DNA from: Eledone cirrhosa
Taxonomy: Eukaryota
Length of the DNA stretch: 64,000 nucleotides
Reading direction: 5' to 3'
Assembly (NCBI GenBank): GCA_964016885.1
Contig: OZ024745.1
Span: 37,758,001-37,822,000 of the forward strand
The notes under the pieces were generated by a model. It was not told the DNA's origin and ran no database searches. It saw only the letters and a program-made list of their open reading frames with translations. The position numbers were made by a program, and so were the translations under genes. Numbering within the stretch: the first letter of the stretch is position 1; every line of letters starts with the position of its first letter. This document shows positions 42,033-54,275 of the stretch, piece after piece.

Positions 42033-42159
42033 ATATGAAAAATTCGGGATACCGACTGCTGAGCTCCGGCCGTTTCAACAGCTAGATCTGAATTAGCTGT
42101 TCGGAATCTAGCTGTTGAAACGGCCGGAGCTCAGCCATGGGGCTCCGAATTTTTCATAT
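42033..42159. repeat. GC-rich foldback, 30-bp perfect inner arms containing GAAACGGCCG
   Basis: gctgagctccggccgtttcaacagctagat / atctagctgttgaaacggccggagctcagc. Confidence 0.9.
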
Positions 42160-43049
42160 TACATACTCTACTATTCAATTATCGAGTACTCTGCTGAGTA
42201 TTGTTCTAACTGGTTTTTACCGCCTCCATCCCGATATATATATATACATATATACACACACAATACATATATATGTGCACTTCTGCGTGTGTGTGAAGGC
42301 GCGTGCACGCGTGCGTGTGTGTGTGTGAGTGGGTAGGTGAGTGTTGGAGAGTTGGATTCAAAATCAGTAAATTCGATACATGGACCGGGTGATGCGTTTT
42401 GTCTTTGAGTAAGAGAGAGAGAGAGAGAGAGAGAGAGAGAGAGTGGGAGAGAATGAGAGAGTTAGACATACATATGTGTGTCTCCATGTATATATATATA
42501 TATATATATATATATGTGTGTGTGTGTGTGTGTGTGTGTGTGTGTGTGTGTGTGTGTGTGTGTGTGTATTTTATGTGTGTACATGTAATTGCGTCCGAGA
42601 GTGTATGCGCGCACGTGCGTATGTTTGCGTGTGTGTAGATACTATATACTCCAAACGAAATCTCGTAGTTTACTGACCGATTTAACTCCCAGTCTATTAC
42701 ACAGTGTATGTGATCCACCACCTAATACTGCAAATATGTAATCATCAAGTGATGGGTGGCGGTAAAGTGACATTCTTTGCTGAACTTGCCAGCTGATATT
42801 AACTGGAAGAGTAGGAGGAATAAGAGTAATCTCTATATAATATAGTCACATGCAGGGTAGGGCCCTTAAAGACTCCGCTTTGCAACACGTCGTTTCGTTG
42901 TAGAATTATCCTAGTATACACTGGTATGATCACAAGTAAATGCAATAAGATTGTCCCGAAGATAATTATTATCAAAATAAGCAAGACATTCAGATAATAT
43001 TTCTCCTTTTATATCTGACGATTCTTGTAAATCCAGAAGTATAATATAT

Positions 43050-43185
43050 GGATCATCAAGCAGATTATCAAAGTAGTTTTGCGCCCAAGATAGCTGGACT
43101 TGTCAACTAGAATGACAAATTTTCCTTTCATTTCAAGAATGTGTTTGTAGACCCTTGATCTTAATTTTTGAGCAACATATTTGTA
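43050..43185 (-). mobile_element. hAT transposase relic (KIAA1586/ZNF862-like first catalytic-D region)
   Basis: manual translation KYVAQKLRSRVYKHILEMKGKFVILVDKSSYLGRKTTLIICL resembles the hAT 'FsiliDEst..s.k..liiy.R' motif. Confidence 0.5.
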
Positions 43186-44433
43186 GCTGTAAATCTCCCG
43201 AATGTAATACTTGTAGAATGTTTACGCTATTTACTTCTAGAAATTGGAACAAATCAAAATAGATAGTTTATGGATCATTAGTTTGGTTATAAATATACAG
43301 TTTAAAATATTTTTCTGGTAGTCTCTACACTACATTAGTTTTATTTCAATGGTACCAGAACAATTTAACAGCTCTAATATGAGAATGTGTTTTCTAATGA
43401 AGTAAACATTTACCCCTAATGATTACAGGTGAACTAATATTGTGTTGGCATTGAATAAACTATAACTAACTTTAGAAATACTAGTTTAGACTAGTTACAT
43501 TAGAACCTGATGCCTATCTGGAGTCACCCAAGTGTACCATCTGGGAAATCAAAGGCACGGGGACTTTGGACGCACGATCATTTAAAAATCTAGACCTGGT
43601 CTACTAAAGTTTGGAAGCTTAGATTTCACATTGCCTTTGGCCTATTACAAATTTTAGTAGGTGGGTACTACATTTAATGAAACCTCGTGATTGCAAAGCG
43701 AACTCCCTAACAACACACTCACGACAGTGTCTAATTTGGACCATTGAATGTTATTTTTATCTGATCAAGCTACTAGGCAGTGACCGTCCGAAGTTTGGCA
43801 TTTAATATATATATATTGATTTGTACATATCAAATTTGTTCATGACAAAATATTGTTATAAATGCCACAGAGAATGCGTAGCGTTATTAATAATATTGAT
43901 AAAAACGTTATCGATTTCTATTTTAACAAAAGCAACAGTATTTTAACAAAAACTGTTGTTAAAATAACATTAATTTTTAAATCTCAGTACAATCGATTCC
44001 GATCATCATAGGATTATTGCAATTCCCAATAATAATGTAGAAGATATTGTCACTGTTGTTCTTGTTGATGATCACGGTGGTGGTGACTGTGGGGTTATTT
44101 AGGCACAACCCCAAACCCAACCCTGAACCTTATATTTATGTTTGAATGAAAAATTAATATAGAACATTTATTGTTTCACGAATAATTATTAGAATATTTG
44201 TTTCTAACATAGTCACACTGGGAGATTGTTTCCCGTCACGTAGTAAGTTTCTAGTGAATTATTATATAGCTCAGCATATCGAATAATCCGGCACGGATAT
44301 GGAATCAAAGGTGCCAAAAAAATCGGAGTTGTACCTGTATTTAAAGTCATTCACATCAACATTGTTTAAAGGTAAACATTTAATATACGTTTCATTTCTA
44401 TAGATGAATAGTCTTATAGATTATAATCTTACA

Positions 44434-44604
44434 GACCTGTCAACTCTCCCTCTCCGGCGGGCAGATCTCCCACCCAATTTGGTATGGGTGAAAATGGGTA
44501 TAGCTTTCATTAAGTATAATCTCCCCATTTTGCATCATCTCTCCCCGTTTTGGGGCACTCTTTTTCGTGGTACTCCCCGTTTGGGCTTTTACAGGTTGGC
44601 AGGT
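44434..44604. mobile_element. Short MITE-like DNA element
   Basis: imperfect TIRs acctgtcaac ... gttggcaggt; internal ctcccc repeats. Confidence 0.5.
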
Positions 44605-51884: not shown

Positions 51885-52510
51885 CAAAACAAAAATGCTG
51901 CGAAGACTGAGACAGTCTATTCACTGCACGTTACATGTGAAAGAAGCTCCACTGAAGCAGGTAGAGATATTCTAGTATCTTTTGGCGGTGTTCACGAGTG
52001 ATGGAAGGTAGGAGGCTAAATTAAGTGCAATAACTGCAGGAGCTGGTGCAGTAAAGTGCCAGTTTCAGTATTCGGAAACCAGAAAAAGGTAGGTAGGTGT
52101 AAAAGCCAAACTTCAATTTGATATTCGTGTCACCTATTATCTATATATCTTTGGTAATGACTGAAAAAATACGATCACAAATACAGGCGGCCAAAATGTG
52201 TTCCTCCGAAGGGTTTTTGGAATAACGTTACTCGAAAGAGTGCATAGCTCGGATATCAGAGAGTTGCTCATCATAGGACCGCTACTTCTGCGAATTGAGA
52301 GAACACAGCTTGGATACGATGGACATGTGATCAGAATGTCTCAGGAAACAATCGCTGGACAGATTTTACAGGCAAAACAAACTGACAGGAGAACCAAGAG
52401 TAGCCCTCCTAGCAAGATGGTTGGATAATATCCACGAGTTCGGCTGGTCTCGTTTGTGGAAGGCACGCTTGAAGCCTGTGGTCCCACGACCCTCCCGGAA
52501 AGAAGAAGAA
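51885..52510 (+). mobile_element. RTE LINE RT C-terminal fragment
   Basis: LKQVE.F.YL...FTSDG, IQAAKM.FLRRVFGITLLERVHSSDIRE..LLLRIERTQL..GHVIRM; (gaa)n tail. Confidence 0.85.
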
Positions 52511-53439
52511 AGATATGGAGGAGGTAACGAATCTTAGTATGGACGCCTACCACAATGTTTAACAATAAACAGTTAACATTTATTGAATATCTGCAAAACA
52601 TCAGTTCAAACAACATCTGGTCTGGGTTATACCTCTCACACACACACACACACACACACATTATACATACGCTCCCTATATATATTTATTATTACTAATA
52701 TATATATATATATATATATAATATGTGTATGCGTGCGTGTGTATGTGTGAGGACGCGTGTTTGTGTCAAGTTTAAGAAAACCATACTGTAAACAATATTC
52801 TTTGTGTTTTAATCAATTTATTATCTTTTTGAAGTAGAGTTGGATTTCCCTATAAAGTTGTTAAATATATTGTTTTCAATATCAACATTGTTTTTGGACG
52901 TGGACATGTATATTGCATATATTGTTACGATCTAAGCGGCGAAGTGGCAGAGTTGTAAAAATGGTGAAGCTGATTGATGACGAGTGGTCCAAGTGACGTT
53001 GACTCGATGTCAAGGAAAGGATGGAACCTTCCCCATCATCGTGATTCCAATTGTGAGTGGCTCAAAACAGAAAACTTTGTTACAGTCTTGTGGGCTGTTT
53101 GAGTTAAGCGCCTTACCAACACCAATAGCGCTTCGGACGCGAAAGTCCACCCCTGCATCTGGATCAACCTGTGGTGTCGATAGCTTAAGCATGGTGGCAA
53201 GTGACATCGATACAAAGATTTTGATGTGTGCCGGGTGAGTGTAACATTGCTCAAATTCCTGTAGGGCGGGTGTTGTTTAGGAGCCTCGGCCATGCTCAAA
53301 CCTGGGGTGAGTGATGTGGCTGGATTTAGGGACCATGTGGCGTTGAAGGTCGAGTCTATATATCCCAGCGATACATCGACGCGGGAGAAATTGCTACTTT
53401 CTTCTGTATTTGAACGAAACGTTCGTAAATCTATTAAAT

Positions 53440-53618
53440 AATTGTTTCTACTTTTGGCACAAGGCCAGCAATTATCCCATTGTATTACTGGTACTTTATT
53501 TCATCGACCCCGTAAGGATGAAAGGCAAAGTTAACCTTAGCGGGATTTGAACTCAGACCATAAAGGGCCGTAAGCTGCAAAGTATGGCGTCCGACCCTCT
53601 ACCGATACTGCCAATCCA
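53440..53618 (-). mobile_element. SINE family A
   Basis: matches the 35338 copy. Confidence 0.88.
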
Positions 53619-53959
53619 ATGTAACTAAACCCTGGTTATTTTATCCTTGTATATATATATATATATATATATATATATATATATATATATATATATATGT
53701 ATGTATATATATATATATATGTATGTATATATATATATATATATATATATATATGTATATATATGTATGTATATATATATATATATATATATATATATGT
53801 ATGTATATATATATATATATATGTATGTATATATATATATATATATGTATGTATATATATATATATATATATGTATGTATATATATATATATGTATATAT
53901 GTATATATATATATATATATATATATATATATATATATATATATATATATATATATATA

Positions 53960-54275
53960 TATAAGTTAAAACAATGAAATAAAAAATCAAGTCATTAGAG
54001 ATATACTTCACTGCTTTACGATCGTTTCTAGATGGGGATAATACATTGTGTCTATACTCTGTTATTGATCTATGTAAGTTTACAAACTATCAGCTTTTGA
54101 AAACAGCTGGTGATATGCATGTAAGTAAATATTCTCTCTATCTGATAATTTGTAAACTTACATAGATCAATAACTGAGTATAGATACAATGTATTATCAC
54201 CATGTAGAAACGATCGTAAAGCAGTGAAGTATATCTCTAATGACTTGATTTTTTATTTCATTGTTTTAACTTATA
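53960..54275. repeat. ~133-bp-arm foldback containing a hammerhead 3' half (GAAACGATCGTA), next to (TA)n
   Basis: 53960-54092 is the reverse complement of 54142-54275. Confidence 0.9.

Follow-up and report, generated by a model that had tools for sequence, protein, structure and literature searches.

Penelope-like elements (PLEs) are described as leaving inverted, 5'-truncated copies and tails with a bias towards (TA)n (PMC8557442), and PLE palindromes at head-to-head junctions, for which self-priming was inferred, were reported in 2013 (PMC3846280). Metazoan PLEs carry minimal type I hammerhead ribozymes (HHRs), mostly solo, with pairs lying 100-700 base pairs (bp) apart on opposite strands (PMC4209133). 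For an anole PLE the start of reverse transcriptase (RT) synthesis was placed at +111-118, with unprocessed RNA as the main template in vitro (PMC11167929), and snap-back of the cDNA itself has been described for R2 (2024, PMC11371274; also PMC11331408). Here we analyze a stretch of 64,000 nucleotides (nt) from Eledone cirrhosa (assembly GCA_964016885.1, contig OZ024745.1, positions 37,758,001 to 37,822,000 of the forward strand), called the window and numbered from its first letter, and we read its short palindromes, with a probability of roughly 0.6, as insertions of several PLE families into (TA)n, all with extreme 5' truncation, in which the cDNA would have snapped back and then attached to the target through TA microhomology.

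The window is AT-rich animal DNA in which (TA)n is abundant. In a blind self-BLAST census with simple repeats masked, eight centered fold-backs scored above the best of 20 shuffles (58.4): the seven palindromes that an earlier note on this DNA had listed, all present where it had placed them, and one at 41314-41369 that its list lacked. A 33-nt fold-back at 41629-41661 scored slightly below that maximum (56.3). In the following list, pivot denotes the turning point, GAAA that of the HHR, and strict 3' half a match to GAAAC, a self-complementary stretch and GTH.

42033..42232, plus strand: fold-back with arms at 42033-42159; pivot about 42090-42096, 21-27 nt 5' of GAAA at 42117
46621..46893, plus strand: old fold-back, 76% arm identity; pivot about 46729, 24 nt 5' of GAAA at 46753; strict 3' half; extension to (TA)n
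48533..48825, plus strand: family Y fold-back; sense copy from 48670 with the stem I 5' strand, core, stem II and GAAA position 48693; pivot 13-14 nt 5' of GAAA
53964..54271, plus strand: fold-back with a perfect HHR 3' half, GAAA at 54207 and a 48-nt spacer; pivot 90 nt 5' of GAAA
16738..16888, plus strand: 98% fold-back with a 4-nt loop and a 39-nt one-sided extension
20939..21075, plus strand: family V fold-back; pivot in stem/loop II, about 5 nt 5' of GAAA at 20975; extension of about 70 nt
27963..28137, plus strand: family Z fold-back with whole HHRs; pivot about 28035 at the stem I 5' edge, 22 nt 5' of GAAA; 31-nt tandem duplication beside the pivot
41256..41369, minus strand: another copy of family Z, whose fold-back (41314-41369) differs from that of 27963; pivot 40 nt 5' of GAAA at 41301
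41629..41747, plus strand: family Y 3' fragment with the 33-nt fold-back; pivot about 30 nt past GAAA in the 3' direction and about 8 nt beyond the predicted cut

The arms are about 98% identical in 16738, 96% in 48533 and 53964, 91% in 27963 and about 80% in 42033 and 20939. The seven palindromes are unrelated, as the earlier note had said, with no BLAST match among them at E < 1e-3, and three have a common 10-nt 3' motif. This motif lies 60-70 nt 3' of GAAA at 21033, 42180, 46819 and 39773 (minus strand), in three otherwise unalignable families and a solo insert, and is a candidate protein-binding or RT-start signal. Local alignment found no relatives of 46621 or 53964 within the window.

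Hammerhead sequence marks seven of the eight centered palindromes, five by the strict descriptor and two by eye (48533 and 42033). A strict 3' half lies within 100 nt of the pivot in five of the eight against a background of 4% (p = 6e-6), within 45 nt in three and within 30 nt in two (p = 0.005). An HHR-type 3' half had been reported in the arms of all seven listed palindromes; it is found in four by the strict descriptor (20939, 27963, 46621 and 53964) and by eye in 48533 and in 42033, whose stem III is palindromic but whose two arms both have GGA at the cleavage triplet, and it is missing from 16738. In six of the seven a whole HHR or a 3' half lies 27-133 nt from the arm end (four strict, two by eye), and every HHR-bearing palindrome is head-to-head, with the HHR sense running outward from the center. 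Both core halves and stems I-III stand together in one arm at 28067-28102 and, by eye, in degenerate form at 48670-48718 (altered core, longer stem III); no whole HHR was found in one arm of 16738, 20939, 42033, 46621 or 53964, the last of which has no recognizable HHR 5' half. The window shares with the minimal HHRs of PLEs (PMC4209133) a short palindromic stem III, the U3-A8 core variant and a predominance of solo copies, whereas most palindrome arms retain the 3' half only and would be invisible to a whole-ribozyme descriptor. Since the arms with GAAA span the cleavage site, the template RNA was uncut, and ribozyme cleavage is ruled out as the cause for these arms; only 41629 could fit it.

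Whole hammerheads are genuinely present in the window. A whole-HHR descriptor found 12 sites in the window against a mean of 0.4 in 30 shuffles, of which four lie in one 467-bp tandem array and one or two look spurious. An Rfam scan, covering the best 150 of 305 matches for the whole window and two small stretches besides, gave no hammerhead match in the palindrome arms; the hammerheads among the matches listed are those of the tandem array and a weak one at 41830 (E = 0.16). We also trained a covariance model on three HHRs outside the centered palindromes. It recovers an HHR absent from its training set (15039, E = 1.8e-7) and gives no match at E < 1 at any of the eight centers (best 28065, E = 1.4), but three whole HHRs (40352, 41862 and 41301) escape it at E <= 10, and the lack of matches at the centers therefore says little.

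The tandem array (8965-12011, minus strand) consists of 6.5 copies of the 467-bp unit, 98% alike, between (TA)n tracts; six units hold a type I HHR (Rfam HH9, E down to 3e-6), and the array resembles a retrozyme of the kind not bearing long terminal repeats (non-LTR). The site at 41830-41879 (plus strand) is a whole HHR with U3-A8 core covariation in an uninverted 149-nt solo insert between TA runs, and several window families have the U.U pair at the base of stem II known from the axolotl HHR_Amex2 (PMC7229834). Like non-LTR retrozymes, the palindromes are non-autonomous and PLE-related and bear type I HHRs, but retrozymes are head-to-tail tandem units and the palindromes head-to-head stubs, only 27963 having a 31-nt partial duplication (PMC7229834; 10.64898/2026.07.22.740005). 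Tandem duplications lie beside the pivot in two unrelated families, at 28032-28093 (31 nt) and at 42088-42116 (about 15 nt), where 42033 has a short internal duplication at its pivot; both end at or near GAAA and amount to a miniature partial tandem.

The outer junctions point to (TA)n as the target. A run of (TA)4 or longer lies within 3 nt of one end in six of the seven palindromes (3.5% of unmasked positions lie within 15 nt of one), so the statement that all lie beside (TA)n needs amending only for 46621, where the run is 57 nt away. The shorter arm ends on an alternating A/T word common to the flanking (TA)n, summing to 22 nt over seven junctions against 6.5 expected (p = 1.6e-4), or to 28 nt against 7.4 over eight junctions when the long element described below is included (p = 4e-6). 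The longer arm goes on for 39-140 nt, and these one-sided extensions, present in six of the seven, may reflect microhomology rather than two RT starts. An element origin of the extension is supported for 42033 only: its 3' extension, which runs up to (TA)n, matches the solo insert 39731-39801 (minus strand; score 64 against at most 34 in shuffles) and is therefore element sequence. With extensions counted, the distance between GAAA and the 3' microsatellite is 101-140 nt in five of seven measured copies, close to the +111-118 start of the anole PLE, whose main template in vitro is uncut RNA as well (PMC11167929).

Further family copies lie in the window:

48860..48976, plus strand: family Y copy retaining native sequence 5' of the HHR, in which a pyrimidine tract with AG stands three bases ahead of the core; its inverted piece comprises the terminal 45 nt only
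17278..17702, plus strand: composite with a family X copy starting at the stem I 5' edge of an intact minimal HHR (17502-17543); its inverted arm 17278-17393 is without an HHR, and a family Y fragment (17393-17456) lies in between
15039..15088, minus strand: intact type I HHR, reference for family V, with an acceptor-like pyrimidine tract and CAG four bases before the core

Within the window, family Y shows three different inversions and a fragment (48533, 41629, 48860 and 17393) and family Z shows two (27963 and 41314); since the pivots differ among copies of one family, these structures were not amplified as a unit. The comparison with miniature inverted-repeat transposable elements (MITEs) drawn by the earlier note consequently holds for shape but not for pivots and ends, which differ among copies of families Y and Z. 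MITEs are short, non-coding, hairpin-forming and TA-flanked, and the palindromes, which carry no open reading frame (ORF), share all of these traits, but in the window they form no uniform multi-copy family, have no conserved terminal repeats and vary in pivot within a family; judged by their sequences, they are not MITEs. A true terminal-repeat element stands in contrast to the fold-back stubs at 38216-38608: it is TA-flanked, with terminal inverted repeats of 28-33 nt, and we take it to be mariner-like.

What we observe directly are the junctions and their microhomology; the steps of synthesis we infer from them and from PLE biochemistry. A PLE protein would nick AT-rich DNA, and cDNA would start about 100-140 nt 3' of the HHR on uncleaved RNA. 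Synthesis would halt after about 85-165 nt, with a modest excess of stops as RT completes the HHR 5' half; many stops would fall on the HHR because it lies within that interval. The free cDNA 3' end would then snap back through 0-2 nt of pairing, usually without any ribozyme stem, and be extended, the second arm being copied outward until a TA- or ATAT-like word anneals to the upstream (TA)n; this annealing would leave the one-sided extension on the other arm. Each palindrome would be made anew at insertion, and the HHR would be a mark of the terminal repeat that may affect where RT stops rather than a primer.

This account agrees with several features of endonuclease PLEs with a Neptune/Nematis-type linker, which also have a head-to-head inverted terminal copy, a palindromic junction, (TA)n or AT-rich targets and an HHR near the 3' end, and whose one-sided extension may correspond to the one seen here (PMC3846280, PMC8557442). 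Unlike the published PLE inversions, the whole insert here is the terminal 85-165 nt (in one case up to 293). In the accessible work on PLE inversions, with subscription literature mostly outside the search, we found no statement linking the inversion point to the HHR. R2 offers a likeness in mechanism, its cDNA 3' end priming on the cDNA before the upstream target is joined and so leaving an antisense piece at the 5' junction, but R2 has a non-LTR protein acting at ribosomal DNA and its snap-back, a minority class, was shown in cells, whereas we argue from genomic fossils of PLEs (PMC11371274, PMC11331408). The earlier note's proposal of snap-back priming during Penelope-driven insertion is thus supported in its PLE origin and its snap-back step, both largely known, but not in its choice of the ribozyme hairpin as primer.

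Several points weigh against our account. Within the window none of the short palindromes is physically linked to a PLE ORF, the link being HHR type and anatomy; the arms of 16738 lack an HHR 3' half, and this palindrome has no significant relative in the window, a likeness to 15743 (minus strand) that was noticed by eye proving not significant in local alignment. Target-site duplications are unreadable within (TA)n, a template switch at the DNA level in (TA)n would leave similar junctions, and the published self-priming was argued on antisense RNA, not cDNA snap-back (PMC3846280). Finally, the excess of pivots near GAAA (p = 0.007-0.05 in most set-ups) goes beyond geometry alone, and the account may therefore understate the role of the ribozyme.

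The window holds two PLEs with ORF sequence, each with an inversion of its own:

313-1326, minus strand: PLE ORF fragment, RT-GIY-YIG, in an element part at 313..1495; the inverted piece 1366-1495 is copied from the endonuclease region
2807..5595, minus strand: ORF-bearing PLE (ORF 3978-4914) with thumb, CxxxxCxxC linker and GIY-YIG; inverted terminal copy at 4913-5555

GIY-YIG was detected at 3966-4586 and 313-1326, both on the minus strand. Relatives of the 3966-4586 ORF are about 750 amino acids long, with RT and GIY-YIG, 57-63% identity and the CxxxxCxxC linker, which has been assigned to the Neptune and Nematis clades (PMC8557442). No HHR was found at the junction of the inverted piece 1366-1495, and a weak HHR-like motif at 2926-2966 lies about 510 nt from the inversion junction of 2807..5595; since these junctions fall within coding sequence or some 510 nt away from such a motif, the ribozyme is not required for PLE inversion. 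This motif, present at 2926-2966 (minus strand) and 5396-5436 (plus strand), has a U3-A8 core, a 5-bp stem II, a palindromic stem III and a GUA site, with GCAA replacing GAAA (covariance model E = 0.11), and is possibly a core variant or a dead ribozyme.

By sequence similarity, the host locus of the palindromes is the region of an octopod gene homologous to RASEF. The EF-hand exon found at 21603-21980 (minus strand) is nearest to the RASEF sequences of Octopus bimaculoides (83% in the part translated) and Argonauta. Other repeats include a decayed long interspersed element (LINE) with an RT (57207-60664, minus strand; Pfam RVT_1, E = 2.5e-20), two LINE-like 3' fragments, 16943-17270 and 40565-40892, that are 95% identical, and a 180-bp family resembling short interspersed elements (SINEs), with many copies (41393-41564 and relatives).

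Where the fold-backs turn relative to the ribozyme bears on the alternatives. Stem II occupies about the 12-20 nt before GAAA, so the pivot mode at 21-26 nt corresponds to the core plus the stem I 5' strand, and only the 20939 pivot is truly inside stem II. The earlier note had put the centers in or near stem II, which 20939 bears out, but most clustered pivots sit at the HHR 5' edge, 53964 is 90 nt off and 41629 lies 3' of GAAA; its placing of one center (27967) at the 5' edge of stem I is confirmed by the pivot at about 28035. Its general rule that fold-backs pivot at or just 5' of GAAA was overstated: five of eight pivots lie within 30 nt on the 5' side, but 16738, 53964, 41629 (a relative of 48533) and both ORF-bearing PLEs do not conform. 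To allow for the HHR's position close to the element end, insert lengths were permuted among elements; the five of eight pivots at 0-30 nt then compare with 2.0 expected (p = 0.029), for a window that was picked after seeing the data and with two offsets that depend on by-eye HHR calls. The excess has p = 0.007-0.048 under other choices of the 3' end and p = 0.011-0.13 with one copy per family. These tests left out 16738 (no HHR), 13971-14025 (below the shuffle maximum) and the spaced or composite pairs 17278/17561, 48784/48867, 38434/38575, 28404/28675 and 13722/13971, and one variant added the ORF-bearing 2807 element. The tendency of pivots toward the HHR 5' edge is suggestive, not established.

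One possible explanation, though the odds are against it, is that an internal RT start yields a strong-stop-like cDNA ended by the HHR 5' edge, either at a splice-site RNA end or by release on completion of the 5' half, which then snaps back into (TA)n. The narrower version, in which the template RNA itself starts at the HHR 5' edge, for example at a 3' splice site, and the cDNA runs off that end, we consider unlikely. It would account for sense copies that start 22-27 nt 5' of GAAA at 17393, 17502, 28064 and 48670, where 42033 and 46621 also pivot, and for two family Y copies that begin at the base following a pyrimidine tract and AG, a tract preserved in a third copy. A family V site is alike, acceptor-like sites thus occurring at 2 of 9 HHRs against a background of 4% per 8-nt window by crude and post hoc motif scoring. 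The PLE intron of D. virilis stops at the 5' end of helix I (PMC4209133), and PLE RT initiates internally (PMC11167929). However, the two family Y copies may stem from one event, family Z stops at two different places, and no upstream exon is joined, unlike in cis-splicing, where D. virilis has a 46-nt exon (PMC2377424). A transcription start at the HHR edge was considered and fits poorly, the D. virilis start lying about 121 nt before the intron end (PMC2377424).

Two separate observations concern HHR families at their 5' side. Three related families (17502-17562, 20657-20714 and 11575-11643, the last on the minus strand) have GT at the stem I 5' edge and a pyrimidine tract with AG about 10-20 nt past it, like a ribozyme in a short intron, by a crude scoring in which the donors are mostly weak. 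Copies of the 20688 HHR family at 18961-19000 and 20266-20395 break off two bases short of GAAA, abut (TA)n directly and have no fold-back; they are identical over 40 nt and possibly a local or assembly duplication.

Priming by the ribozyme itself, the earlier note's model, in which the second strand starts from a hairpin formed by hammerhead stem II or I as copied into cDNA, we think quite unlikely to be right. For five junctions the window offers an independent copy of the family; three were compared with the junction predicted for stem-II priming, and 41314 and 41629 were judged by where they turn. Only 20939 is compatible with a native stem-primed center, given a 4-nt deletion and point changes, and four of the five do not use a native stem. 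In 48533 the sense copy begins 23 nt and the inverted copy 6 nt before GAAA: the sense copy extends past stem II and the core as far as stem I, and the inverted copy begins in loop II with a 2-nt overlap, so stem II must be open for this re-priming; both arms reach (TA)n. In 27963 the turn is at a TA dyad bordering stem I on its 5' side. The pivots of 41314, about 20 nt before the ribozyme, and of 41629, past its 3' side, fall outside it, as do those of 53964, 16738 and the two inversions with ORFs. The excess at 0-30 nt favors stem priming, and 42033, which lacks a reference copy, could be a case, but narrower windows fitted to stem II are not enriched (0-15 nt, two of eight, p = 0.17; 0-20 nt, p = 0.27), the excess softens with one copy per family, and RNA folding of 11 HHR-like stretches gave monomers no stabler than shuffles (z from -1.5 to +1.2). 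The evidence therefore does not support a priming duplex made of the ribozyme hairpin.

An origin at the DNA level seems improbable to us; in that case a stall of replication or repair in (TA)n would be followed by two template switches of the nascent strand, and a resident insert would become a short palindrome without an RNA step. All cases adjoin TA-rich DNA, with TA microhomology at the junctions, 16738 has no HHR, and resected ends are reported to self-anneal at L1-made breaks (10.1101/2024.12.14.628481). Against this, seven of the eight centered palindromes are HHR-family sequence and the HHR cases are all head-to-head, as is typical of PLEs, whereas none of the LINE, LINE-like and far commoner SINE-like repeats of the window yields a centered fold-back.

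Sequencing or assembly artifacts, suggested by an assembly gap at 1496-1695, 100%-identical inverted pieces, duplicated TA blocks and mismatches crowded into the inner arms of 48533 (six of seven in the inner 40 nt, p = 0.003) and 53964 (five of five in the inner 63 nt, p = 0.02), deserve next to no credence, as the arms end at element ends and do not mirror the flanks, 46621 is 24% diverged, family copies lie elsewhere in the window and the pivots are restricted to one element class. The crowding does mean that divergence between arms, which had been offered as a sign that the palindromes are real, is no proof by itself; bounded arms, family copies in the window, TA microhomology and a single element class are better arguments. 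The mismatch-rich inner arms lie at 48687-48725 and 54093-54030, and comparison with family copies places five of the six inner changes of 48533 on its right arm; the crowding may reflect hairpin mutagenesis, gene conversion or read error.

The fold-back structure and self-priming are already published, and what is new here is the positional tendency only, which is weak; the remaining lead is why cDNA ends at the HHR 5' edge. The completion of PLE insertion, the formation of inverted ends and the role of the HHR are stated as open in PMC8557442 and PMC11167929. With about eight such fossils per 64 kb, the genome would, if the window is typical, offer thousands of junctions at which cDNA stops and re-priming could be mapped against the ribozyme at base level. 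The hairpins, which match many microRNA models in Rfam below threshold, could be mis-annotated as microRNAs or MITEs. If the strong-stop-like cDNA reading is true, it would account for the great number of HHRs that stand solo or on opposite strands in animal genomes, give the PLE ribozyme region a cleavage-independent role and provide an RNA route to hairpin elements.

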